From an uncultured Gammaproteobacteria bacterium (GTDB lineage: Bacteria; Patescibacteriota; Patescibacteriia; UBA9934; CAMTUG01), in the NCBI GenBank assembly GCA_964588955.1, contig CAZPQJ010000003.1:42-64041 (forward strand): a stretch of DNA of 64,000 nt, written 5' to 3'. Below, in pieces: positions 1,984 through 58,643 of the stretch. The notes under the pieces were generated by a model. It saw only the letters and a list, made by a program, of their open reading frames with translations. It had not been told where the DNA came from and did no database searches. The translations under genes and the position numbers were made by a program. Position 1 is the first letter of the stretch. Each line of letters starts with the position of its first letter.

Positions 1984-2652
1984 ATGCATCCCATCCAAAA
2001 AGCAATTCTCGATCTCGCAAAGACTCGGAATATAGCCAAAATGACGCTCCGTGACCTTGGATTGGCGGTCACTGGCAAGGAGGAATTGCCCCAGAAGATG
2101 AAGTATCACCGTGAGAAGCTGATCGAAGCGGGACTTTTGCGGGTTGTCCACAATGGCGAGACGATTGAGCCCGTCGAATCTCGCGGCGCGACACCGGGAT
2201 TCGTACAGATTCCAATCCTTGGCGCGGCTTCCTGTGGTCCAGCCCTTGAAATCGCTCAGGAGAGCGTTGAAGGCTATCTCGTCATGTCCGAGAAGCTCGT
2301 ACCAGCCAATCATGATGCGGTTTTTGCCCTTCGCGCCGTCGGTCCCTCGATGAACCTCGCGAACGTGAATAACAAAACGATCGAGGACGGCGACATCGTC
2401 CTCGTGGATGGGAATGTCAGACAGCCATCGAACAACATGTATGTTCTTTCCGTCATCGGTGACGCCGCCAACATCAAGAAATACGTAGAGGAAGGAAACG
2501 GCCAAATCGCTCTCGTGTCCGAATCCACGGAGGATTTTCTTCCCATCTACATCCACCCAGAAGACGATTCGAGTTTCTTTATTAACGGAAAAGTAATCGA
2601 CGTCTTCAAGAAAAGGACGAAGCAGAAACAATATGCACATCGGCCATTCTGA
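1984..2652 (+). CDS. LexA/CI-like repressor: an S24 peptidase with an N-terminal winged-HTH domain.
   Basis: The N-terminus (MHPIQKAILDLAK..MTLRDLGLAV..KLIEAGLL) resembles the LexA DNA-binding fold. The C-terminus carries the S24 Ser/Lys dyad (AVGPSMNLANV ... ANIKKY) and the DGDIVLVD beta-strand typical of LexA/UmuD autoproteases. Confidence 0.75.
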   Translation: MHPIQKAILDLAKTRNIAKMTLRDLGLAVTGKEELPQKMKYHREKLIEAGLLRVVHNGETIEPVESRGATPGFVQIPILGAASCGPALEIAQESVEGYLVMSEKLVPANHDAVFALRAVGPSMNLANVNNKTIEDGDIVLVDGNVRQPSNNMYVLSVIGDAANIKKYVEEGNGQIALVSESTEDFLPIYIHPEDDSSFFINGKVIDVFKKRTKQKQYAHRPF

Positions 2653-3586
2653 AATTGTTCGCTTCGCTGACGATAGGGTTAACCTTAAGCGCGAGGACGT
2701 AAAGGAATATCGCGATCAGGTGAACCGTCTGCGCGATCGTCTTGAACAGCACATAGCGGAAAATCCCGCCTTCGCTCTGCGGAAGATGCTTCTTTCCGGT
2801 AGTCTCGCAAAGGGCACAGCACTAAAATCTATCAACGACATCGACGTTGCCGTGTACGTATCGGAATCGGACGCACCGGCCACAATGTCCGAGCTGATTG
2901 CAAGCGTGGCGGGTCGGCTTCGCACGGCATTTCCAAATTTCAAGCCCGAACAGGTCGTGCAGAACTCCTCGAACATCACAATTCTGTTCTCTGGCACCGG
3001 ATTGAAGGTCGACATTGTTCCCATCCTTTACGATCAGGATCCTGATTGGAAGGGTCACATTGTCTATGAGAACGGGAATAAGGTGCTCACAAGCATACCG
3101 ATGCACCTGGATTTCATTCGTCGCCGGAAGGCAAAGCACGAACAGCATTACGCGCAGATAATTCGACTTTTGAAGTATTGGGTTAAGTATCAGAGGTCGA
3201 AGAATCCCGAATTTCGCTTCAAGTCCTTCATGATCGAACTGTTGGTCGCCCACCTCGTGGATCGCGGCCTCGAACTCGAGGACTACCCGGAAGCTCTGGC
3301 GAATATATTCGCATACCTTGCCACGGACGCCTTCCGTACCGATATCGCATTCAGCGATCACTACGATCCGACCGATTGCCCGGAGTGTTCTGACCCTATT
3401 CGCATCTGGGATCCGGTGAACCACCAGAATAACGTGGCGAGTAGGTACACCACGGCACAGCGTGAGGCGATTATTGACGCTGCGCTTGAGGCTGGTGACG
3501 CCGTAGACTCAGCGCTCCGCGCCCCAACCAAAGCAGAGGCACTCCGTTACTGGCGCAAGGTCTTTGGGCCAACTTTTGACGCATAG
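2633..3586 (+). CDS. CBASS cGAS/DncV-like nucleotidyltransferase (CD-NTase).
   Basis: It has the GS...DID nucleotidyltransferase signature (GSLAKGTALKSINDIDVAVYV) with a third acidic residue in GLKVDIVP. It is the first gene of a four-gene operon and its start overlaps the end of the LexA-like gene by 20 nt. Confidence 0.8.
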   Translation: MHIGHSEIVRFADDRVNLKREDVKEYRDQVNRLRDRLEQHIAENPAFALRKMLLSGSLAKGTALKSINDIDVAVYVSESDAPATMSELIASVAGRLRTAFPNFKPEQVVQNSSNITILFSGTGLKVDIVPILYDQDPDWKGHIVYENGNKVLTSIPMHLDFIRRRKAKHEQHYAQIIRLLKYWVKYQRSKNPEFRFKSFMIELLVAHLVDRGLELEDYPEALANIFAYLATDAFRTDIAFSDHYDPTDCPECSDPIRIWDPVNHQNNVASRYTTAQREAIIDAALEAGDAVDSALRAPTKAEALRYWRKVFGPTFDA

Positions 3587-18196: not shown

Positions 18197-19810
18197 TTAA
18201 TAGCCAAGATGTTTGAGTGCTGCTTCCGTACGGTGAAAGACGAGCTGCTGTTTTTCTAACAACCGAAATCCCTTACTCTCCTCCAGATGTTTTTGTATGA
18301 ACGGGCTCACGCTGGAAATAAGAACATCTTTGCCCTGGGCGTGTATTCCCTCAATGATTTCATCTAAGATGTCCACGCCGTCGAGATCAATAAAGTAAAG
18401 CTCCCGTAAACGTAGGACGATATGTTTGTAGCCGTTTAATTTAGAAAGGCGTTCCAAATGCGCGCGGCCGTTGATAAAGGCGAGCTGACCTTTGATGGAA
18501 TAGACAAGCGTTTGAGCGTGTTCCGGAATGTTCGTGATGTCATCACTGGTAGCCTTTTTGAAGTCCTTTCGCTCAGCGTCGTTGATGATGAGATCAAACT
18601 GACCGTGAGATAGACGTTCAATAAAGATCATGAGCGTAATGGCGGTACCGAACAATATTCCGACGATTGGGTCAAGATAAACCGTTACCAACGCCACTAA
18701 AAGTGAGATGCCAAAGGAAAGTTTGTCGCGGCGGAACATGCGCACAAAATGTTCTCCCTCAACCATGCGTATTGCTACAAATACCAGGATGGCGGCAATG
18801 ACCGCCAGGGGAATGTAGGAGAACGAACGAAGAAAAACGAGAGAGATAAGGGCGATGCAGACACTGCTGATTCCGGCTGACACGCGGTGGTCGGCTCCGC
18901 TTTTAATGTTAAGCGACGTGCGTGCCAGCGCCGCGGTGGCCGGAATACCCCCCATAAGGCCAACGGCGATGTTCGCCAGAGCCAGGCCGCGCATTTCTTT
19001 GCGTTCATCGTGTTTGGTTTTGGTCATACCGTCGGCAATTTTCGCCGAAAGCATTGTTTCTAAAATCGCGACAACGGCGACGGTAAATCCTCCAATCAGT
19101 AATTGCTCATCCCACTGCCAGTGCGGAGGAATAAAGAGGACGGCATGGAGGTTAGAAAACTTTTGCCCCAGAGTCTGTATGGTAAGGGGAATCGTGCCGT
19201 TGGCGGTGAGGTATCCGAACAGAATACCAATTGGCGCGAGCAAAACAGCTCCCGGGATTTTTGGTACAAGACGCTGAAGAATGAAAAGTCCCACTAAAAA
19301 GAAAAGAAAAACAACAAACGTTGTCCATGATCCGGAACCGAGGTGTCGCAATGACTCTAAAAGATTTTCAACGAAGCGTTCGTGGGTGGCCAGTCCAGAT
19401 ATTCCCGTAGCAAAGTTTAATTGCCCTAAAGCGATGATAATCGCCACGCCAAGGGTAAAGCCATGCATCGCGCTTGCCGGAACAAATACCAAAAAGCGTT
19501 GCAGGTTGCCAAGGTAGGCGAGCAAGATAAATCCTCCAGCCACAATCGCAAGAAGGGCAAGGCTTGATTGGCCGTGGGCGATGGCATAGGTGGCTAGCAC
19601 ACCGGAAAGCGCGCCCGTTGGCCCAACAATATTAAAGTTGCTTCCGCCAAATAGGGCAGCGATAAGTCCTGCCCAAATGGCCGTCAAAATGCCGATCGTT
19701 GGGGTAGATTGAGAGGCGACGGCAAGGGAAACGGAAAGGGGAATGGAAACAAGGGAAACGGTCAATCCGGACTTCCAGTTTTGGCGTACGCGTGTGAAGA
19801 TGGTGTGCAT
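18197..19810 (-). CDS. SulP-family anion transporter with a C-terminal STAS domain.
   Basis: Typical SulP N-terminus (LTVSLVSIPLSVSLAVASQ...FGGSNFNIVGPTGALS) and a STAS-like C-terminus. Confidence 0.85.
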   Translation of the reverse strand: MHTIFTRVRQNWKSGLTVSLVSIPLSVSLAVASQSTPTIGILTAIWAGLIAALFGGSNFNIVGPTGALSGVLATYAIAHGQSSLALLAIVAGGFILLAYLGNLQRFLVFVPASAMHGFTLGVAIIIALGQLNFATGISGLATHERFVENLLESLRHLGSGSWTTFVVFLFFLVGLFILQRLVPKIPGAVLLAPIGILFGYLTANGTIPLTIQTLGQKFSNLHAVLFIPPHWQWDEQLLIGGFTVAVVAILETMLSAKIADGMTKTKHDERKEMRGLALANIAVGLMGGIPATAALARTSLNIKSGADHRVSAGISSVCIALISLVFLRSFSYIPLAVIAAILVFVAIRMVEGEHFVRMFRRDKLSFGISLLVALVTVYLDPIVGILFGTAITLMIFIERLSHGQFDLIINDAERKDFKKATSDDITNIPEHAQTLVYSIKGQLAFINGRAHLERLSKLNGYKHIVLRLRELYFIDLDGVDILDEIIEGIHAQGKDVLISSVSPFIQKHLEESKGFRLLEKQQLVFHRTEAALKHLGY

Positions 19811-19964
19811 ACAACTCGCTTAACTCGTAAAAACGTCGGTAGTGTACTCCTGGTTTTGCGGATGATCAAGAGAATGCGAAATGCTAGTCGTTTTTGTTAG
19901 CAACACAATGCGGTTTGACGTAGGTTCATTATTTCTGTTACAAGATGGTGAGCTTGGAGTGTCC

Positions 19965-20435
19965 ATGTCTGTTCGAGAAGGTTCTGTGCTGGCCATCTGC
20001 GTTGCAACGGGTGCTGGCAGGCCGATGATCTCTGTGAACGAAGTCAAGGCTATCGCTGGGGCGGGACTGGAGGGCGACCGTTACTGCGTCGGTAAGGGGA
20101 GCTTCAACAAGGGCGAGGTGGGTCGTCGACAGGTAACGTTCATGAATGGGTCCTTCATCGGCGGAAGTGGGTACATCTTCGGACAGACGCGTCGCAACAT
20201 CTGCGTCGGCGACGTCGAACTGATGCGCTGCATCGGCCACGAGTTCTACGTCGGAACGGTATTGTTTCGGGGTACCAAGTACTGCGAGCCGTGTTCGCGT
20301 CCCGGAACCTTGCTCCGCCTTCCCGTCGCGTTCGATGAAGCCTTTCACGACACCGGCGGCTTGGTCGCCGAAGTGCTCACGACGGGGATCATTCGCGTCT
20401 TCGACAAGGTGTACCCGCCGTCCAGGAGCTACTGA
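19965..20435 (+). CDS. MOSC-domain protein.
   Basis: GLEGDRY ... RRQVTFMN ... conserved Cys (YCEPCSRPG), typical of the MOSC beta-barrel. Confidence 0.65.
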   Translation: MSVREGSVLAICVATGAGRPMISVNEVKAIAGAGLEGDRYCVGKGSFNKGEVGRRQVTFMNGSFIGGSGYIFGQTRRNICVGDVELMRCIGHEFYVGTVLFRGTKYCEPCSRPGTLLRLPVAFDEAFHDTGGLVAEVLTTGIIRVFDKVYPPSRSY

Positions 20436-20558
20436 CCAACGTGTCTCGTTAGCATTCTCTTCTCGCCCCGCGCGGCATGAACACACAGTTCTGCCGCGCT
20501 TCGTCTTTTCTGTCCAAGCCTCAGTAAAACTGCTAAACTGAAATGACAAAATACTTCT

Positions 20559-21617
20559 ATGCAAATGAATAAACAGAACTGGTTGGCCGGTTTAGGAATC
20601 ATAGCTGTGTGCGCGCTTGGGGTTGCGGGTGGGTATGTGGCGTATCAAACACAGATGCCGACGACGATAATTGAAGACAACGCCACAGAAAACACCACGC
20701 CGACGACGGCAGTCAATCAACAAACCGCTAGCAAATTGTGCGGTGATGGGATGTGTGATGCTATCGAAAGCGCGCGTGGAATTTGTCCAAAAGACTGCAC
20801 AACGAAGGATGCCGCCTCGGGCTTTACCAACGGAACGGAAGCGAACACTTATTACGTTGTCAATCCCACGTCGGGGAGCAAGCTGTACGCCTGGGTGATG
20901 TATCCAAGCAGCAAAGAAGGGGACACGAGTTTGCCGCCGATTGTCCTTATCCCCGGATCGACAGAAACCAGTGACGGTTTTACGGCGGGGGAGCGAAAAG
21001 ACGCCCAGCCAATCGCTGACGCGGGTTTCGCCGTGTATGCCTTTGATCCTGAAGGGCGCGGCAAGAGCGAGGGGGAGGAAGACAATAATGGATCTATCGG
21101 CCAAGATGGTTTGGGCGAGATCATCAATTTTGCCTCCGCCCAGCAATCGCAACAAGCTGTCGGCGTGATCAGTTTCTCTTATGGCGTGACCATGGCTACA
21201 GGCGCCTTGGCACGACATCAAGATTTACCCGTAGCATTTCTCATCGATTGGGAAGGGCCGGCGGATCGTAACGACACTGGCGGTTGTGACGCCGATGACA
21301 CGGGGCACATGAAAGATGTGGGCTGTACTAACGAAGCATTTTGGAAAGAACGCGAGGCGATCAACTTTGTGGATCAGCTCACTGTGCCGTATTTGCGCGT
21401 TCAGTCACAAAAGGACCACTCGCAGCCAGACACCCTTTCTGCCGTACGTATGGTCAATGCCGCCGTGGCTGGAACCAGCCCGTGGGTACGATTGAACGAT
21501 GGCAAGGTCGACGCTACCTACAGCGAATCCGCTCCGCCGACCATGCTACCGGAAACATTTGATCGGGTCGTTATGAAACGTCTCGGTGCCTACGCTCAAG
21601 AGATGTTCGCTCTTTAG
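20559..21617 (+). CDS. Secreted alpha/beta hydrolase.
   Basis: Signal anchor plus a GxSxG-like nucleophile elbow (ISFSYGVT). Confidence 0.55.
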   Translation: MQMNKQNWLAGLGIIAVCALGVAGGYVAYQTQMPTTIIEDNATENTTPTTAVNQQTASKLCGDGMCDAIESARGICPKDCTTKDAASGFTNGTEANTYYVVNPTSGSKLYAWVMYPSSKEGDTSLPPIVLIPGSTETSDGFTAGERKDAQPIADAGFAVYAFDPEGRGKSEGEEDNNGSIGQDGLGEIINFASAQQSQQAVGVISFSYGVTMATGALARHQDLPVAFLIDWEGPADRNDTGGCDADDTGHMKDVGCTNEAFWKEREAINFVDQLTVPYLRVQSQKDHSQPDTLSAVRMVNAAVAGTSPWVRLNDGKVDATYSESAPPTMLPETFDRVVMKRLGAYAQEMFAL

Positions 21618-43720: not shown

Positions 43721-44392
43721 ATGGCAACTCTTTCGATCGTGGCCACACCTATTGGAAATCTAAAAGACATTACCCTTCGCGCGATAGAAACGTTAAAAGA
43801 CGTCGATGTTGTTTTGTGTGAAGACACCCGTGTCACGATGAAACTTTTGTCCCATTTAGAACTCAAAAAAAAACTGATAAGTTTTCACGAGCATTCGGAT
43901 CGTCATAAACTCGACGAGGTCCTCGATGTGCTGCGTGGCGGATCGAACGTCGCCCTCGTGACCGACGCGGGCACCCCAAGCGTTTCCGATCCTGGCGCCT
44001 GGCTGGTACGCGAAGTGACGCGATCGTTGCCGGATGTTGTCATCACGACTATTCCTGGACCATCCGCCGTGGCCGCCGCCATCTCTATTTGCGGATTCGA
44101 CGGCTCTGAGTTTGTCTTCATGGGCTTTCCGCCACACAAGAAGGGGAGGAAAGCGTTTTTTGATCGTCTGGCCGCGGAGGAACGCATCGTCGTCGTGTAC
44201 GAGTCGACCCACCGCATTATGAAAGCCATGGAAGAGCTGTGTGAACGCTTAGGTGACCGTCCCCTGGTCGTTTGCCGGGAACTCACCAAAGCCTTTGAAA
44301 CCATCTATCGCGGCACCGCCGACGAGGTGACAGAACAGCTCAAAACAGGTAGCATTAAAGGAGAATTTGTGATTGTTGTTGGATCTGTATGA
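43721..44392 (+). CDS. rsmI: 16S rRNA (cytidine1402-2'-O)-methyltransferase RsmI (short form).
   Basis: LSIVATPIGNLKDITLRAIETLKDVDVVLCEDTR and the tetrapyrrole-methylase-fold motifs. Confidence 0.85.
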   Translation: MATLSIVATPIGNLKDITLRAIETLKDVDVVLCEDTRVTMKLLSHLELKKKLISFHEHSDRHKLDEVLDVLRGGSNVALVTDAGTPSVSDPGAWLVREVTRSLPDVVITTIPGPSAVAAAISICGFDGSEFVFMGFPPHKKGRKAFFDRLAAEERIVVVYESTHRIMKAMEELCERLGDRPLVVCRELTKAFETIYRGTADEVTEQLKTGSIKGEFVIVVGSV

Positions 44393-45822
44393 AGACGTTT
44401 TACGTGAGCACCCCCATTTATTACGTGAATGACAAACCGCACATTGGCCACGCCTACTCCACGATTGCGGCAGATATTTTGGCGCGCTATCACCGTTTGC
44501 TTGGTGAAGAGGTGTTCTTTTTAACCGGCACGGACGAGAATTCGCAGAAAAATATTGATGCCGCCAAGAAAGCCGGTGAAGAAGATATCCAAGCGTACCT
44601 GGATCGCATGAGCGGGGTGTGGCAGTCCACCTGGAAAACCCTTGGTCTCACTAACGACGATTTTATTCGTACCACACAAGAACGTCATAAAATGGGCGTG
44701 GAAAAATTTTGGGGCGCGGCGGCCGAGCGCGGTGATATTTACGAAGGCCGGTACGAAGGATTGTATTGCGTCGGCTGCGAGGAATACAAAAAAGAAGATG
44801 ATTTGGTTGACGGTCTCTGCCCTATGCACAAAAAGGCGCCAGAGAAATTGTCAGAGAAGAATTATTTTTTCAAACTTACTAATTACCGCGAGGCGCTCCT
44901 TAAGCATATTGACGATCATCCAGACTTTATTCAGCCGATGAGTCGTCGCAACGAAGTGCGTTCCTACGTCGACAAGTTCATGACTGACACGAGCATCTCT
45001 CGCGAAACGGTCAAATGGGGGATTAGCGTGCCGAATGACGAGAGTCAACGGATTTATGTGTGGTTTGATGCCTTGATCAACTATTTGACCGGTGTTGGTT
45101 ATGGAACCGATGAAGGAAGGTTTCAGAAGTTTTGGCCAGCCAACCTACACATCGTCGGCAAAGACATTATTAAATTCCACTGCGCTCTGTGGCCAGCGAT
45201 GCTTATGAGCGCGGGGTTGCCGTTGCCTGAGCGCGTTTTTGCTCACGGGTTTTTTACCATCGACGGCGAGAAGATTTCCAAGTCGCTTGGTAATGCCATT
45301 GATCCTGTTGAACTCGCTCAGGACTTCGGCGTCGACGCCGTGCGCTACTTTTTGATGCGCGAAATTTCTTTTGGCGAAGACGGCGATTTCTCTCGATCGC
45401 GTTTGGAACAGCGTTACGACGGCGAGCTGGCGAGTGAGCTTGGTAATCTTGTAAATCGTGTTCTCGTGATGGCTAACAAATATGGTGTTGGCGCCATCGC
45501 GGAAAAAGCTCCTGTTCTGCCTTCTGAATATCACCAAGCCATGATCGACATTCGTCTGCACGACGCTCTGCAAGAGGCGTTCCGTATGGTGCGCGAAGCC
45601 AATCAATACATTGATCAACAAGCACCTTGGAAACTTGCTAAAGAAGGGAAGCAAGAAGAGGTTGCGGCGGTGCTGACAAAACTGCTGGAAATGATCACTC
45701 AGATTGCCGGCATGCTCGTCCCGTTTATGCCGACCACGGCAGATAAAATCAACGAGCAACTTGTGTCGATGATTCCGACGCCAATCTTCCCTCGTCGTGA
45801 TCCGTCCGCCCCAACGAGCTAA
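44389..45822 (+). CDS. metG: Methionyl-tRNA synthetase, minimal form.
   Basis: HIGH (PHIGHAYS) and KMSKS (KISKSLGN) motifs, with a CxxC...CPxH zinc knuckle. Confidence 0.9.
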   Translation: MKTFYVSTPIYYVNDKPHIGHAYSTIAADILARYHRLLGEEVFFLTGTDENSQKNIDAAKKAGEEDIQAYLDRMSGVWQSTWKTLGLTNDDFIRTTQERHKMGVEKFWGAAAERGDIYEGRYEGLYCVGCEEYKKEDDLVDGLCPMHKKAPEKLSEKNYFFKLTNYREALLKHIDDHPDFIQPMSRRNEVRSYVDKFMTDTSISRETVKWGISVPNDESQRIYVWFDALINYLTGVGYGTDEGRFQKFWPANLHIVGKDIIKFHCALWPAMLMSAGLPLPERVFAHGFFTIDGEKISKSLGNAIDPVELAQDFGVDAVRYFLMREISFGEDGDFSRSRLEQRYDGELASELGNLVNRVLVMANKYGVGAIAEKAPVLPSEYHQAMIDIRLHDALQEAFRMVREANQYIDQQAPWKLAKEGKQEEVAAVLTKLLEMITQIAGMLVPFMPTTADKINEQLVSMIPTPIFPRRDPSAPTS

Positions 45823-47217: not shown

Positions 47218-47257
47218 AGCGAAGAGAAAGATGGAGAAAGTAGGAGAAAAAGATATA

Positions 47258-47369
47258 GGCGGGGCCACTGTGCCCCGCCAGGGACACGTGTAGAAATAGC
47301 AAGCGCCCCCGGAGGAGAGTTTCCTTCGGGGGCGTTGAAGTTGTCGCTGCCCCCGGAGGAAGTTCCTCC
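47258..47369. repeat. Three consecutive GC-rich hairpins with an internal 12-nt direct repeat (gcccccggagga), located at the junction between tatD and the GC-rich island.
   Basis: ggcggggccactgtgccccgcc; cgcccccggagg..ccttcgggggcg; ggaggaagttcctcc. Confidence 0.5.
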
Positions 47370-47472
47370 ACAACCACGAGGGGTTGCTTGGGGACGCTAG
47401 CGTGCGGAGATCAGTCCCGCGTGGCGTCTTTCGACTACCTCCTTGATCTACGCGGAACCTTGATCCCGCGAA

Positions 47473-49260
47473 CTACGACGAGGCCGGGGCCTCGCCAGGG
47501 GCCTGCTGGATCTCTCCCGTCGCGCGACCCTTGCGCGAACGGCGGGGCTTCTTCTCCGTCACGGGCGGGGTGGCGGGCGCTTCGGGAGCCGGGGCGGAGG
47601 GATCGATCACGGCGATGAGCGCCGCCTCCGCCGCGTCGAGCGCGGCCAGGAGCTCGAGCCTGCCGGTCCCGATCTCGATCGCCGCCAGGCCGTGGTGCTG
47701 GCGCCGCTGGTTGAGGTAGGTGAGGGCCGTTCCCCCGTCCTCCTTTCCTTTCTGCTCCGCGGTGGCTCCGCGGACGGCCTGAGGCGTGTTGCCCCGCGGC
47801 TGCAGGAAGGCCCAGGCTTCCACCGTGATCGCCTCGCCGAATGTGACCGTGAGATCCACCAAGGGGCAGGTGATGAGCTTCTCCGCGGCCTGCAGAAGAT
47901 CCTTGCGGACCTGTAGCGCCGTCGGGTTCTCGAAGTCGGCGTCGGCTGCCCCGTTCCCGCGCATCCACGCGAGCATCGGGTCGTCCTCGACCGGCCGCTT
48001 GAACTTGAAGTCACCGAAGCGCTTGCGCGCCTCCCAGATCGGCACGTCCGTGCCGATCCCGGTGGCCGCGCGGGCTTGCTCTACCGAGAAGACACTGGTC
48101 AGTCGCCCGACCATGTCCGCCCGGTAGTGCCCCTGTTCGACTTCGGCACTCGGACGCACGTTCTCGACGAGCGTGGTCATCACGAGGCCTCGTCGCTCGC
48201 CTTCCTGCCTCGGCATGGTCCACCCCACGGCCATGATGGCCTTGACCGTCGGATGGGTGTCCCTCGGCTCCTCCCTGCCGAGACGGTCGATGATCGACGC
48301 CAGGCGCGTGACGTCGAAGCGGTTGATGGTGACCCCCAACGCGTCCATGGGGGGAACGTTCGGCACCTTGCTCATGTGCGCGACCGTCTTCGGGGCGCGC
48401 TGCTTGAGCTGCGGGCGGAGATCCGCACCGCTGGTGTACGCTCCGACGACTCGTGCCCAGACCGCTCCGAAGGTCTCCATGCGCTCGCCGATGGGGAGGC
48501 TGAAGATGACCGCACCCGGATCAGGAACCACCGAGTCGTTGAGCAGCATGACGGACTTCCCCTCGTATCGGACACCGCGCACCTTCCGAACCCGCCCACC
48601 GTCATAGGTGATCACGGGATCTTCCGACTGCACTTCGCCCACGAAGAGGATCTGTCCCTCGTAGAGCTCGTAGACCGGATCCTCGTCCTCCGGGATCAGG
48701 CGCTTGGACGGTTCGGCCATGATGTTGTAGGCCTTGACCGCCTTCGAGCCGGCCACGATCCAGGGGAGCGCACACCATTCACCGTCGATCTCCCAGACCA
48801 AACAGTCGTAGGCCTTTCCGGGGATCGGCTTGTGGATGGCACAGGTGAGCGCGCGCGCCAGCAAGTGCCTGGTCTCCCCGTCGACATCCATGTCGAAGGG
48901 GGCCACGTAGACTTGCTTGCGTCCCATCTGCCGCGGACCGAAGGTCAGGCGACGCTGGGTCACTCGGTCACCCGGGATCACGCACTTCGACCCGAGCCGG
49001 TAGCTCGCGTAGTAGAGTAGACCCCAGAGCGCGGCGTAGGCCTTGTCCTGGGGGCTCATCACCACCAGGGCGTTCTTGGTGCCCAAGATGGAGTTGGCGG
49101 CATCCTCGATGGTCAGGCTGGGGTTGTCCGCCACCATCTGCCTGGCCTGCGTGAGCTGCTTGACGGTGAGGCCAAGCTTCTTGGCTTCGGCCTCGTCCAG
49201 AGCGGCTTGCATGGCGTTGGCGGGCGTGGTGGAGCGGGGCGGGTTCTTCTTCTGGGACAT
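47473..49260 (-). CDS. Hypothetical 595-aa protein of a GC-rich, foreign-looking island.
   Basis: Long ORF with strongly G/C-biased third positions, unlike the flanking genes. No Walker or recombinase motifs were recognised. Confidence 0.5.
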   Translation of the reverse strand: MSQKKNPPRSTTPANAMQAALDEAEAKKLGLTVKQLTQARQMVADNPSLTIEDAANSILGTKNALVVMSPQDKAYAALWGLLYYASYRLGSKCVIPGDRVTQRRLTFGPRQMGRKQVYVAPFDMDVDGETRHLLARALTCAIHKPIPGKAYDCLVWEIDGEWCALPWIVAGSKAVKAYNIMAEPSKRLIPEDEDPVYELYEGQILFVGEVQSEDPVITYDGGRVRKVRGVRYEGKSVMLLNDSVVPDPGAVIFSLPIGERMETFGAVWARVVGAYTSGADLRPQLKQRAPKTVAHMSKVPNVPPMDALGVTINRFDVTRLASIIDRLGREEPRDTHPTVKAIMAVGWTMPRQEGERRGLVMTTLVENVRPSAEVEQGHYRADMVGRLTSVFSVEQARAATGIGTDVPIWEARKRFGDFKFKRPVEDDPMLAWMRGNGAADADFENPTALQVRKDLLQAAEKLITCPLVDLTVTFGEAITVEAWAFLQPRGNTPQAVRGATAEQKGKEDGGTALTYLNQRRQHHGLAAIEIGTGRLELLAALDAAEAALIAVIDPSAPAPEAPATPPVTEKKPRRSRKGRATGEIQQAPGEAPASS

Positions 49261-49401
49261 GGTGCCTCCTAGGCGGATGTGGCCGTTTGGCCGTTTGTGG
49301 CCTTATGGCCGGGTGATTGGACTGACTGCCGACTTTATATTAGACGGCCCAAAGGCCTAAAAGTCGATTTAAGTCAGCTCAAAAAATTATCACATTTTTT
49401 T

Positions 49402-49444
49402 ACTTTTGTCAATGGCTAATGATGCTGAAGCTATTGACAAAAGT
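49402..49444. promoter_or_regulatory. Perfect 12-bp inverted repeat (ACTTTTGTCAAT ... ATTGACAAAAGT), a candidate operator in the AT-rich divergent promoter region of the GC-rich island.
   Basis: Each arm contains TTGACA. The region 49300-49576 is AT-rich and sits between two divergently oriented GC-rich genes. Confidence 0.5.
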
Positions 49445-49576
49445 GTATTTTTATGCTAGTTTTTTAAGTCGGTTTTTCGTTGCTGGACAGTTAAAAACAG
49501 CTCGAAACGCCGTAGAGTTTCTGTTCACAGATCGATTCTGATCCACCCGCATCTTCAAACTGCCCAAGGAGGCACC

Positions 49577-50785
49577 ATGGCACTTTCCATCGACCAGGCC
49601 GCTGATCTCTTTGTTAATGCCTTCACGAACCCCGTCAAGCCGCTCACCCGCGGGGAGGTCGGGGAGCTGAAGGTACACATCAACGAGGCCGGGCGGGTGA
49701 TCCGGGGGGAGATCGGGAACACCCCGTTCTTCGACGCGATCCTCGCTATTCCTGCAATGGACGAGGCCATGCAGCTCCTGAGCGATCTCGCCCAGGCCAC
49801 CGACGACCTCCAGCGGGGGACGATTCTTGCCGGGAAACCGGCAAACGTCGTCACTAACGCCGGAAAGTTCTTCAAGGTGGCCACGCCGGCGGCCGCACCC
49901 CCCGCGACTCACGGACCGGCACCTGGTGCCCCTCCCGTGGCCGTGCCTCCGGTTCCGCCCGGAATCGGTGGGCCGGTTCCTCCCACTCCGCCCGCTCCGG
50001 CCAACCCGCCCGCAGGAGCACCGGCCCCGGCACCGGCACCGGCACCGGCACCGGCACCGGCACCGGCACCGGCACCGGCACCGGCCAACCCCGCACCCAC
50101 TGGGGCACCGACCGGTGGGGCGACGAGGCGTGCCTTCTCCCGTCTAGGAGCGAGGGTCGTCGCACAAGGAGGCGCGAGTCCGGTGCCCGTGGCCGCCCCG
50201 GCCGCGGTCGTCGCGGCGACGCCTGTCGCAGTCGCAACCCCTGCGGCGGCAACGGTCGCGGCAGCCACCCCGGTCGCCGCAACCACACCGGCTCCGGCGA
50301 CCACCCCGGTCGCAGGAACACCGGCAGCGGCGGCCGTCGTGGCGTCCTCCGCGCCCTCTCAGGGACGGAGCTGGTGGATGTGGGGCTTCCTCGGCCTCGC
50401 AGCCATCGGCCTCGTCGTCTGCTGCGGTGGGGGAGGAGTCTGGGGCTACCGCTCCTTCTTCTCCGGCAACGGGGAGAAGGTCGAGGCTGCGACCGAGGCT
50501 CACGCCGAAGTCAAGGTCAAGCCCTCCGAGATCAAGGGGGACGGGACGGTCGCGCTCGAGGCGGTCCCGATCGAGACGCTCGCTGCGACCGTCGCGGGCA
50601 AGGAAAACCTCTGCAACCTCTGCAAGGAGGGAGCGGAGGCGCCCGATCCCGCCTGTCCGAGCCAGGATCTTGGTCCCGCGGCCTGCGCGGCCATCCAGGA
50701 CATCTGCGACCAGTGCGAGGATCACCGCACCTACTGGAAGCGATGTGACGCCATCATCCGGCGTCACATCAACAACCTCCGGTAG
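49577..50785 (+). CDS. Hypothetical membrane protein: an N-terminal domain, a Pro/Ala-rich linker, one TM helix and a Cys-rich C-terminal domain.
   Basis: (PA)n low-complexity region; TM WWMWGFLGLAAIGLVVCCGGGGVWGY; the C-terminus reads CNLCKEG...CPSQDLGPAACAAIQDICDQCEDH. Confidence 0.5.
   Translation: MALSIDQAADLFVNAFTNPVKPLTRGEVGELKVHINEAGRVIRGEIGNTPFFDAILAIPAMDEAMQLLSDLAQATDDLQRGTILAGKPANVVTNAGKFFKVATPAAAPPATHGPAPGAPPVAVPPVPPGIGGPVPPTPPAPANPPAGAPAPAPAPAPAPAPAPAPAPAPANPAPTGAPTGGATRRAFSRLGARVVAQGGASPVPVAAPAAVVAATPVAVATPAAATVAAATPVAATTPAPATTPVAGTPAAAAVVASSAPSQGRSWWMWGFLGLAAIGLVVCCGGGGVWGYRSFFSGNGEKVEAATEAHAEVKVKPSEIKGDGTVALEAVPIETLAATVAGKENLCNLCKEGAEAPDPACPSQDLGPAACAAIQDICDQCEDHRTYWKRCDAIIRRHINNLR
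50020..50078 (+). repeat. Hexanucleotide microsatellite (GGCACC)n, about 9 units, encoding (PA)n.
   Basis: Visible tandem run ccggcaccggcaccggcacc... lying in-frame within the CDS. Confidence 0.8.
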
Positions 50786-50853
50786 GGACAATTCACGAAT
50801 TGTCCAAGGAGACCCGGGCTCCCTCCGCTTTCGGAGCCCACAACACGCGTGAA

Positions 50854-50898
50854 CGCCGGCCAGGGTCAACTCCCTCGGCCGGCGATCGCTTTTTATTT
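50854..50898 (+). terminator. Intrinsic terminator closing the GC-rich island on the plus strand.
   Basis: An 8-bp GC stem (cgccggcc ... ggccggcg) followed by ctttttattt. Confidence 0.6.
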
Positions 50899-50937
50899 CA
50901 CTTTTCTCATATTTTCTCCTATTTTTTCTTTTTTCCC

Positions 50938-50966
50938 TTGACCCCACCCTCTATTTCCTCTATACT
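50938..50966 (+). promoter_or_regulatory. Sigma70-like promoter of the ATP synthase operon.
   Basis: TTGACC (50938-50943), a 17-nt spacer and TATACT (50961-50966), lying 40 nt upstream of atpZ. Confidence 0.6.
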
Positions 50967-57685: not shown

Positions 57686-57715
57686 TTGACAAAACCGGTT
57701 TTTTATGCTATATTT
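57686..57715 (+). promoter_or_regulatory. Sigma70-like promoter for the acidic lipoprotein gene.
   Basis: TTGACA (57686-57691), an 18-nt spacer, then TATATT (57710-57715). Confidence 0.5.
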
Positions 57716-57785
57716 TCTCCTCCGCAAACGCGCGGAAAATGGTACCATCAACGTGTCCAACCCCCTATCGAGAGGAGATACCACC

Positions 57786-58643
57786 ATGCTTTTCAGTACC
57801 CTGTTCCTGGTTGCTTGCAGCGAGAACAACATCATCGTGCAGGAGTCCAGCTCGAAGGTCGATGACCCCAAGAACGTCGAGGGCTACACCGAGGTGTACG
57901 TTCCGACGCAATCGACCACCGACACCGATCCGTCGGGTGTTGGCACCATGGACGTGCCGGAAGACTCCAACCCGGACGGCGTCGAGACCGACACCGACAC
58001 CGACACCGGCACCGACCTTGAACCGACCGAGGATCCCTGCGCCACCACGCAAGTGATCTCCACCGGCCTCTGGGACGACACCGACGGCGATGGAGACCGT
58101 GAGCTTGTGTACGCGGAAGTGTACGCCAAGCCGATCTTCTCCCACCTGGGCGAGGATGCAATGGAGGTCACCCAGGGTGAGGAGTCGCCGTTCGACCTGG
58201 TTGTCACCAACCAGTGCTCGGCGATCCGCATCTGGAACTTGTTCTACCTGATCGACGACGACGACCTGGACGGGGAGGGGTGGCTCTACGACATCAACGA
58301 GGAGCGCATGGAGGCCGGCTACCTCTCGGAGTACTCCACCGGCGAGGAGTTCTCCCCGATCGCGGCCATCAACCTCGACTGGGGAACGACTTCCGATGAG
58401 CTCCAGTACGAATGGTGTTCCGAAGATGTCGGCACCAGCCCCTGCACCGACATGGGCGACCCCCGCGAGATCGGCGCGGACGAGACGGAGTTGTATCCGT
58501 TCGAGTTCACCGCGACGGACTACGCGCCTGTCGGCACCATCTTCCAGGAGATGATCGTTTCCGTCGTCTGGGAGGACGTCGCCACTGGCACGGTCGTGTG
58601 GGACTACTCGTACGACATCGTCGACGTCACCGTCGTCGAGTAG
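57786..58643 (+). CDS. Highly acidic Asp/Thr/Glu-rich lipoprotein encoded by a GC-rich gene.
   Basis: Lipobox LFLVACS, a DTDTDTGTD repeat, and numerous D/E runs. Codon GC is clearly higher than in the adjacent atp genes. Confidence 0.5.
   Translation: MLFSTLFLVACSENNIIVQESSSKVDDPKNVEGYTEVYVPTQSTTDTDPSGVGTMDVPEDSNPDGVETDTDTDTGTDLEPTEDPCATTQVISTGLWDDTDGDGDRELVYAEVYAKPIFSHLGEDAMEVTQGEESPFDLVVTNQCSAIRIWNLFYLIDDDDLDGEGWLYDINEERMEAGYLSEYSTGEEFSPIAAINLDWGTTSDELQYEWCSEDVGTSPCTDMGDPREIGADETELYPFEFTATDYAPVGTIFQEMIVSVVWEDVATGTVVWDYSYDIVDVTVVE

Follow-up and report, generated by a model that had tools for sequence, protein, structure and literature searches.

Is a sharply bounded block of GC-rich DNA, lying in a genome of about 50% GC, a recent import, an assembly artefact or an old resident? 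The question is raised by the junction between tatD and the adenosine triphosphate (ATP) synthase (atp) operon in a 64,000-nucleotide stretch of a Patescibacteria genome (contig CAZPQJ010000003.1), hereafter the window, or W. The junction holds a cassette of two divergent genes:

47473..49260, minus strand: large gene, the conserved core of the cassette, encoding a 595-aa protein (65 kDa, pI 8.4); GC content at third codon positions (GC3) 0.87
49577..50785, plus strand: small gene, encoding a 402-aa protein; GC3 0.77

An earlier note on this DNA took the block for either a recent horizontal acquisition or an assembly chimera. Comparison with related genomes has led us to think, on balance, that the cassette is an ancient, vertically inherited and strongly promoted pair of orphan genes, whose GC-rich codons are held in place by a force specific to coding sequence.

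Composition and limits of the block

The abrupt change in composition described in the earlier note is real. Windows of 400 nt climb from 0.47-0.55 to 0.63-0.775 GC between ~47.2 and ~50.8 kb, with a mid-block dip to 0.485, and 47258-50890 is the sole block above 60% GC in the 64 kb, every other 1-kb bin lying at or below 0.585. Third codon positions are dominated by G and C: GC at the first, second and third positions (GC1/GC2/GC3) is 0.66/0.47/0.87 in the large gene and 0.72/0.61/0.77 in the small gene, while GC3 of the other 66 open reading frames (ORFs) of the window, which serve as the host baseline and include one further outlier (57705..58643), has a mean of 0.558 and a standard deviation of 0.062. 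Third-position periodicity, together with conservation of the proteins across genomes, fixes the reading frames of both genes. The GC skew of the block stays within +/-0.14, close to 0.

Much else in the note's picture of an uncharacterised two-gene module was correct: the 595-aa minus-strand and 402-aa plus-strand ORFs are present and divergent as described, their codons look foreign, divergent promoters are recognisable in an AT-rich region between them, and terminators bracket the pair. Hairpin clusters at the two edges fold with z-scores of -4.8 to -6.9 relative to shuffled sequences, none of 200 shuffles folding as well. Searches of Pfam, PHROGs, NCBIfam, PADLOC and PDB sequences agree that the larger protein has no recognisable motif, and the composition, hydropathy and predicted secondary structure of the smaller one fit the proposed order of N-terminal domain, Pro/Ala linker, one transmembrane (TM) helix and Cys-rich end. 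The similar motifs noted at the two junctions turned out to be at chance level: CACAACCACG and CACAACACGCG have in common one hexamer and a few bases, and the pattern CACAACNNCG, taken from the first junction copy, occurs 3 times in the window against 3.3 expected, the second copy not fitting it. A repeat scan of the window found neither a target-site duplication nor convincing terminal repeats bounding the block. A 29-nt, 79% inverted repeat at 47222/50902, purine-rich on the left side and pyrimidine-rich on the right, was considered as the terminal repeats of a mobile element and rejected; it is read as the T-rich tails of two outward-facing terminators.

The same locus in related genomes

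A scan with TatD returned 20 loci, all from Patescibacteria metagenome-assembled genomes (MAGs) labelled Uhrbacteria, Parcubacteria or Magasanikbacteria, and a metagenome scan added L023 (Hainich groundwater), which belongs to the same species as L002; relative loci are numbered L001 to L023. A GC-rich block lies directly after tatD in eight genomes (W, L001, L023, L003, L004, L010, L011 and L006) and, where the contig extends, stops at atpZ. Its GC is 0.60-0.66 in hosts of 0.44-0.58. Every complete block pairs a large gene of 512-640 aa with a small one of 240-400 aa, and the two are divergent without exception. W and L010 have the large gene on the minus strand and the small gene on the plus strand, and the partial blocks of L001, L011, L006 and L023 likewise have a minus-strand large gene; in L003 and L004 the whole cassette is inverted. 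The block is present in seven relatives of W, an observation that the earlier note had named as counting against a chimera. The outgroups L017 and L018 have an empty junction, where 123 and 146 bp hold the conserved atp promoter and nothing more. Five other loci (L005, L009, L012, L016 and L020) have spacers of 0.66-1.4 kb with host-like GC, and the ORFs identified in these bear no relation to the cassette: one in L009 encodes an inositol monophosphatase, and one in L005 has no family match.

Host trees were built by neighbour joining from few genes (573-1486 aligned columns). In the tree of RsmI and TatD the eight bearers form one clade, whose three subclades are also the three cassette subfamilies: A (W, L001, L023), B (L003, L004) and C (L006, L010, L011), each with 100% bootstrap support, as has the grouping of B with C. 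The inverted orientation is confined to subclade B. The simplest history is a single origin near the base of the clade, followed by vertical descent and one inversion. The cassette proteins have changed quickly along the way, being 25-44% identical between loci where TatD is 82-89% and housekeeping neighbours in general are 60-89% identical.

Several features of individual loci are recorded here. In L004 only, two copies of a ~110-nt palindromic element resembling a miniature inverted-repeat transposable element (MITE; GTCATCCTGAGCG...CGCTCAGGATGAC) flank the cassette, with a perfect 35-nt direct repeat at 10955-10989 and 13925-13959 and arms at ~10895-11042 and ~13879-13993; none was seen in the much shorter junctions of L003, which had no repeat scan. 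L023 has an extra 180-aa gene between tatD and the large gene (2174-2716, minus strand), with a PaaX-type Cas2-like domain (PF20803, E 5e-11), which the window lacks. The ends of seven contigs fall in or at the cassette: those of L001, L006, L011, L022 and L023 within it, that of L021 immediately beyond the large gene and that of L002 in tatD. Strain heterogeneity, or loss of coverage at 70-77% GC in assemblies of 5-6x, could account for these breaks; L021 and L023 differ by 3 nt in 1880. Among 11 syntenic neighbours, W and L001/L023 are 47-89% identical, with the exception of MetG of L001 (6613-8112), which is 40% identical to window MetG (44389-45822); MetG of L023/L002 is 72% identical, and the genes next to it are 56-89% identical. 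This suggests that the methionyl-tRNA synthetase of L001 was replaced xenologously; because MetG is xenologous elsewhere too, it was not kept as a marker for the host trees.

Maintenance of the GC-rich codons

Complete large genes have a GC3 of 0.87-0.95, against host gene values of 0.46-0.66. At conserved four-fold degenerate codons the frequency of identical third bases is close to that expected from composition, for tatD and the large gene alike: between W and L001 it is 0.30 (0.29 expected) in tatD and 0.39 (0.39 expected) in the large gene, and in other pairs it exceeds expectation by up to 0.12. Even the closest hosts are thus separated by synonymous divergence at or near saturation. The GC content of four-fold degenerate sites (GC4) of the large gene is nevertheless 0.81-0.98 in every lineage, as opposed to 0.49-0.77 in tatD. 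Synonymous saturation combined with a high GC4 kept in every lineage means that a relic of transfer would have decayed.

The excess begins and ends with translation. In subfamily A, GC3 is 0.85-0.95 from the first 20-codon bin; in L003, L004 and L010 it begins at 0.65-0.75 and reaches at least 0.85 within 40-60 codons; and in all complete large genes it stays high to the stop codon. Large-gene 5' leaders have a GC of 0.49-0.53, compared with 0.486 in host intergenic DNA, and GC3 does not climb over the final 40-80 codons of tatD. The small genes, only 160-320 bp away, are less biased (GC3 0.66-0.79). Since the excess is confined to translated regions and is unequal between the two genes, it argues against regional processes such as GC-biased gene conversion (gBGC) or transcription-linked mutagenesis, and against recent import. 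In the cassette the gain is shared by C3 and G3, and A3 and T3 drop to 2-9% each.

Adaptation to host tRNAs was considered as the cause and rejected, the codons being opposite to those of the host atp genes. The host atpA, atpD and atpE favour GGT, GCT, TTG, GAA, AAA, CGY and CCA/CCG and shun CCC, GGG, CGG and CTG, whereas in the cassette CCC reaches 40%, GGG 28%, CGG 18% and AAG 97%, CCA falls to 0%, and CTG and GAG are also used. Antisense ORFs of nearly full length are present on the other strand of the large gene in L001 (10625-12271), L003 (6019-7554), L004 (12138-13676), L010 (11371-13059) and L023 (236-2173), and an interrupted one lies in the window (48076-49020, plus strand). They were rejected as genes and are regarded as a by-product of the near absence of the sense codons TTA, CTA and TCA (0-1%).

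Another gene in the window departs from the host baseline. The ORF at 57705-58643 (plus strand), after atpC and before an AddA/UvrD-PD-(D/E)XK helicase-nuclease gene, has a GC1/GC2/GC3 of 0.58/0.40/0.85 and encodes a 312-aa orphan of pI 4.05 with a lipoprotein-like start (..LFLVAC) and a D/T/E-rich linker. The fraction of Gly, Ala, Arg and Pro in its product is 0.19, so there is no GC-type shift in amino acids and the GC excess is purely synonymous. The atp operon is thus bordered by GC3-rich orphans on both sides. In L009, an outgroup with no cassette, the gene directly after the atp operon (18633-20837, plus strand) has a GC3 of 0.75 against a host median of 0.39 and encodes a lipoprotein with an acidic linker and many Cys-rich D-x-N-P-C-T repeats. 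Genes for GC3-rich envelope proteins may be a wider phenomenon in these bacteria.

Promoters, leaders and terminators

The 316-bp spacer between the two genes has a GC of 0.44 overall and 0.28 in the promoter core, and holds two back-to-back promoters of the form TTGACA-N17-TGn-TAnnnT, which together make up a 40-nt imperfect palindrome at 49378-49468. The elements recognised in the spacer and around the genes are the following:

47258..47279, minus strand: tatD-side terminator-like hairpin, GC-rich, with 8 GC pairs and a T-rich tail on the minus strand; fold z -4.8 and -6.9
47280..47472, minus strand: 3' untranslated region of the large gene, GC 0.61, with two more strong hairpins at ~47303-47335 and ~47349-47369
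49261..49376, minus strand: predicted large-gene 5' leader of ~115 nt, with a 5'-terminal stem-loop, short GGCC..GGCC hairpins and AGGAGG 4 bases before the ATG
49384..49412, minus strand: large-gene promoter, TTGACA (49412..49407), 17-nt spacer, TGn, TAATTT (49389..49384)
49434..49462, plus strand: small-gene promoter, TTGACA (49434-49439), 17-nt spacer, TGn, TAGTTT (49457-49462)
50786..50890, plus strand: three hairpins 3' of the small gene, fold z -5.8, the last of which (50853-50882) forms a terminator with a T-run
50938..50966, plus strand: atp operon promoter (TTGACC-N17-TATACT), in the host flank outside the cassette

The full set of TTGACA, 17-nt spacer, TGn and TAnnnT is present in 13 of 14 promoters over seven loci; across the window TTGACA is found at only 0.28 per kb. 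Transcription starts of W are predicted at ~49376 (minus strand) and ~49470 (plus strand). The predicted large-gene leader of W folds with a z-score of -3.1 and has a host-like GC of 0.53. Leaders of ~95-120 nt precede the large gene in five of six homologous loci; four of five folded better than shuffles (z -2.1 to -3.1), the fifth not, and four of the five open with a hairpin at predicted position 1-2, that of L004 lying at position 9. No consensus leader structure was found over the seven loci, whose alignment is too divergent, so that the hairpins are supported one by one only. The GGCC repeats at 49270-49310, at one point taken for iteron-like sequences, were reread as small leader hairpins. 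The context AGGAGGCACCATG is common to both genes of W. From these signals we infer strong transcription and stabilised messages.

Of the terminator-like elements of the large gene, hairpin 47258..47279 is the outermost, pointing towards the end of tatD. Across W, L001 and L023 the hairpins 3' of the large gene can be aligned, with paired changes. An Rfam scan of 46.5-51.5 kb gave only sub-threshold chance matches. Conserved in relatives with or without a cassette, the atp promoter delimits host sequence on the right side; rsmI, metG, cvpA and tatD precede the block, and atpZ, B, E, F, H, A, G, D and C follow it.

The two cassette proteins

The large protein has no signal peptide and no TM segment, and its tail in W is basic and disordered. 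An exhaustive phmmer search against 1.84 billion protein representatives returned, at E<=1e-10, the query itself (P0001) and three true relatives: P0002, the protein of L021/L023 (43% identity, E 1.5e-123); P0003, that of L001 (24-25%, E 3e-21); and P0004 (25%), from a 2.5-kb contig that also carries a divergent partial small gene. A fifth match (E 5.7e-4) covers a stretch of only 33 residues. Two word-indexed searches with the large protein gave back just the query, the 8000-candidate filter having been filled, probably by low-complexity words. All the relatives are either chromosomal at such a locus or context-less fragments and short contigs, and no homologue from a plausible donor lineage was found among these representatives. 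Counting the loci, homologues of the large gene are P0002-P0004 and those of L003, L004, L010, L011 and L006. The large proteins of L003 and L004 are 30% identical (E 1e-36) and those of L010 and L011 66%; the partial ORFs of L011 and L006, whose translations were read by eye, look like the large protein of L010. A profile-profile match between two alignments, A1 and A2, that links subfamilies (E 3.6e-4, probability 37%) is colinear over 266 columns and covers the motifs A-[LIV]-P...AG...V..[YW]N and LG[VI]TI.RFD (LGVTINRFD).

The family libraries (Pfam, PHROGs, NCBIfam and PADLOC) were run on the single proteins and on all seven family members, and yielded nothing beyond low-complexity or TM noise. 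The large protein matched no family of the SSB, RPA or tRNA_anti type in Pfam, NCBIfam or PDB sequences, and neither cassette protein had a match in 2.9 M viral contigs, 50,697 phage records or 72,556 plasmids (tblastn and a viral-contig scan). AlphaFold2 (AF2), given a four-sequence alignment, modelled the large protein with a mean pLDDT of 55.6 and a pTM of 0.31, moderately confident only at residues ~20-60, ~220-250 and ~390-555. Three fold searches with this low-confidence model placed LEF-3, RPA, CST/Teb1, SSB/PriB and HIN-200 at or near the top, all below significance; no significant match was found in the structural libraries, and a BFVD fold search was likewise empty. Binding of single-stranded nucleic acid by tandem oligonucleotide/oligosaccharide-binding (OB) folds in the beta-rich region at ~100-275, in the N-terminal half, is thus hinted at by the model as a weak lead, the sole one towards a function, and the ~250-aa helical C-terminal half has no counterpart in the OB-fold matches.

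The small protein of W, which is 22% Ala and 14% Pro, divides as follows:

49577-49870, plus strand: N-terminal structured domain of ~97 aa
49871-50371, plus strand: Pro/Ala-rich disordered linker of low complexity, residues ~98-265
~50372-50440, plus strand: strongest hydrophobic segment, residues ~266-288, predicted helical and read as one TM helix
to 50782, plus strand: C-terminal ~110 residues with 8 Cys

Small genes of W, L001, L003, L004, L010 and L022 have in common the N-terminal motif M-x(3-5)-[IV]-x(4)-LFG, and the proteins also carry a [SRN]-P-[ED]-[ED] motif followed by a long low-complexity linker. The TM helix and the Cys-rich end are particular to W, no TM segment being obvious in L003, L004 and L010 when their sequences were read by eye. 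The small protein resembles an adaptor or tether: its disordered linker is long, and in W it would be anchored in the membrane. The AF2 model, built from the single sequence, is of low confidence. Residues 265-337 have a weak match to PHROG 197 (Zot-like; E 1e-4), in the TM part only. Within the linker region about twelve head-to-tail copies of CCGGCA at 50015-50086 (five 12-nt units according to the repeat tool) encode (Ala-Pro)n and are a possible site of length variation by slippage. A linker-deleted query made of the N- and C-terminal parts matched nothing in a word-indexed protein collection, its own copy included; the neighbouring 595-aa protein is present there as P0001, and the small gene may be uncalled in the deposited annotation. 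Both cassette proteins are orphans, founding two families found so far only at the tatD-atp locus of one Patescibacteria clade.

Proposed origin and maintenance of the cassette

The data presented above have led us to propose a model in which the short tatD-atp spacer either gained the cassette or gave rise to it, at or close to the ancestor of a single Patescibacteria clade (Uhrbacteria/Parcubacteria-like), and the cassette was inherited vertically from then on, with one inversion in one subclade. Each gene has its own promoter, which is of sigma-70 type and near consensus (perfect -35, 17-nt spacer, extended -10), and a predicted leader of ~100 nt that starts with a stem-loop and carries a consensus AGGAGG ribosome-binding site; stacked hairpin terminators would insulate the two genes from tatD and the atp operon. 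The proteins evolve fast yet stay intact. The extreme GC3 would be a steady state, kept separately in each lineage, in translated regions only and more strongly on the large gene. The force behind it may be selection on the synonymous GC of the mRNA or of the coding DNA, which might, for example, favour a long-lived message resistant to RNase.

A single recent horizontal acquisition in W, or an assembly or binning chimera, as the earlier note had it, would account for the abrupt change in composition, the orphan genes and the foreign codons, and it is the least probable of the explanations considered, to the point of being hardly credible. A homologous cassette lies at the same junction in seven other independent assemblies from different studies, sequence runs unbroken through both junctions of W, and its flanking terminators and atp promoter have homologous counterparts in the relatives. 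Against an acquisition stand the grouping of the bearers, the agreement of subfamily and orientation with host subclades, the host-like or AT-rich leaders and promoters, and synonymous saturation with a GC3 near 0.9 kept in each lineage; the searches described turned up no integrase, no att or tRNA site, no target-site duplication and no copy in viruses or plasmids. Repeated site-specific insertion of small GC-rich mobile elements, such as remnants of cryptic viruses or plasmids, in either orientation, would make each copy young and of donor composition. It would fit codon usage that is foreign and opposite to the codons the host prefers, the occurrence of both orientations, the outgroups with empty sites, the many contigs that break in the block, the MITE-like repeats of L004 and the weak Zot-like match of the small protein. 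Yet integrase, transposase, relaxase, Rep, capsid and assembly ATPase (Zot P-loop) families are all missing from the Pfam, PHROGs, NCBIfam and PADLOC scans, the window has no tRNA gene, att site or target-site duplication, and no copy turned up in viral contigs, phage records or plasmids. The only relatives at the phmmer threshold besides the query are the three chromosomal or context-less ones; each host subclade has one fixed subfamily and orientation, the composition of leaders and promoters is like that of the host, and L021 and L022, considered as circular elements, were rejected as such because their ends do not overlap. We regard repeated insertion as unlikely.

The remaining explanations keep the cassette in place and look elsewhere for its GC. 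One is a recombination hotspot with gBGC: strains would exchange alleles of a hypervariable replacement locus by way of its conserved flanks, tatD and atp, and frequent repair of heteroduplexes would push GC upward, much as in replacement surface-antigen islands or the GC-rich vls locus of Borrelia. GC-biased conversion has reportedly been proposed for bacteria by Lassalle et al., and both it and selection on synonymous-site GC are debated in the literature. Fast protein evolution at a fixed locus, identities within subfamily A that are not clearly proportional to host distance, the clustering of assembly breaks in the block and the symmetric rise of C3 and G3 would all follow. Unlike a conversion tract, however, the GC excess halts at the start codon and spares leaders, promoters and the end of tatD; the bias differs strongly between two adjacent genes, the GC skew is about 0, and no silent donor cassettes or paralogues of the cassette genes are present in the window. 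The GC3 excess over the host, +0.3 to +0.45, is also far above the values given for gBGC in bacteria. We give this explanation the same small chance as repeated insertion. Smaller still is the chance of local AT-to-GC-biased mutagenesis, caused by very high or head-on transcription and acting without selection, which would account for the fast protein evolution and for the moderate shift towards Gly, Ala, Arg and Pro (0.31-0.35, compared with 0.26 in the host); in subclades A and C, moreover, the large gene is opposite in strand to nearly all its neighbours. But the transcribed 5' leaders are not GC-enriched, the large gene of subclade B is co-oriented with its neighbours and equally GC3-rich, A3 and T3 are depleted equally with no strand asymmetry, and the outlier at 57705..58643 lacks a GC-type amino-acid shift. 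Transcription-associated mutation in bacteria is AT-biased.

Descent of an old, strongly promoted gene pair under a coding-specific force remains the explanation we favour, and a number of points weigh against it. Codons opposite to those of well-expressed host genes fit poorly with very high expression, transcription starts and expression levels are read from sequence, and we know of no established mechanism that would give a GC3 near 0.9 in single genes of a bacterium of 50% GC. The clade of all bearers has only 59% bootstrap support in the tree of RsmI and TatD; with AtpB, AtpF and AtpA added it again appears, at a low 62%, with the non-bearers L005 and L012 as its sister, and adding the visibly xenologous MetG breaks its monophyly. 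Given this weak deep support, an additional loss or gain of the cassette may have occurred. Identities within subfamily A (43% between W and L023, 25% between W and L001) follow no resolved host tree, the hosts being about equidistant, so that some exchange of alleles within the subfamily is conceivable. Every genome compared is a MAG.

A broader proposition, which we put forward tentatively and consider rather doubtful, is that some Patescibacteria have a small class of vertically inherited genes held at ~90% synonymous G+C by a selective force specific to coding sequence and unrelated to tRNA preference, and that the large protein founds a new, clade-specific family of nucleic-acid-binding proteins, possibly with tandem OB folds. 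The class would comprise the cassette, the lipoprotein gene after atpC and perhaps the similar outgroup gene. Exceptionally stable, RNase-resistant messages in energy-starved, ultra-small cells might be the reason; a more speculative idea is that the messages or genes have to work within, or touching, the cells of a partner organism that is itself GC-rich.

Relation to known systems

The closest analogy for the compositional behaviour of the cassette is provided by gene transfer agents (GTAs). The RcGTA-like head-tail clusters of Alphaproteobacteria are vertically inherited and depart from their hosts in GC and codon usage, which has been attributed to selection (Kogay & Zhaxybayeva 2022, PMC9765227). 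Elevated GC in GTA genes, in the account that PMC9765227 gives of it, goes back to Kogay et al. 2020, mBio, and the codon bias of GTAs is reported to match the available tRNAs. Like these clusters, the cassette is vertically inherited and has a GC above that of its genome. Unlike them, it has no phage head or tail homology (PHROGs, phage records, BFVD), the defining feature of a GTA, consists of only two genes, uses codons that the host atp genes shun and has a far larger GC3 excess.

With a classical genomic island or prophage remnant the cassette shares a sharp break in composition, orphan genes and an intergenic position beside a conserved operon. It differs in having no mobility genes, tRNA or att site, or direct repeats, in its occurrence in all the clade members sampled, where its subfamilies are congruent with the hosts, and in its lack of amelioration despite saturated synonymous divergence. 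Replacement islands such as O-antigen and OBC clusters are usually AT-richer than their genomes, while the vls locus of Borrelia is persistently GC-richer. The cassette resembles both in its fixed position and very divergent alleles, and vls also in its GC, but it has no glycosyltransferase or surface-polysaccharide genes, no silent cassettes in the window and no GC skew, and the large protein carries no export signal. Multi-OB-fold binders (RPA, LEF-3, CST/Teb1, SSB/PriB) are the top structural neighbours of the beta-rich part of the large protein, whose basic, disordered C-terminal tail is a further likeness; these matches, though, are sub-significant and come from a low-confidence model, with no match in sequence and the helical half left unmatched. 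The likeness of the small protein to the inovirus Zot/pI protein (PHROG 197) lies in the weak match of its TM part; it has no P-loop ATPase domain, and no other filamentous-phage genes accompany it. None of the known systems compared here fits the cassette.

Atypical composition is the standard first-pass sign of horizontal transfer, and this cassette, foreign in all its compositional measures yet old, syntenic and inherited, is a clean counter-example. Its synonymous equilibrium, about 0.3-0.45 in GC3 above that of the host, bears on whether selection, biased conversion or mutation sets the GC content of bacteria. With two genes, sharp boundaries and several independent lineages in hosts ranging from 44% to 58% GC, it offers a compact and testable system. 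The seemingly strong promoters imply that the cassette proteins may be abundant in these cells, whose biology is mostly obscure.

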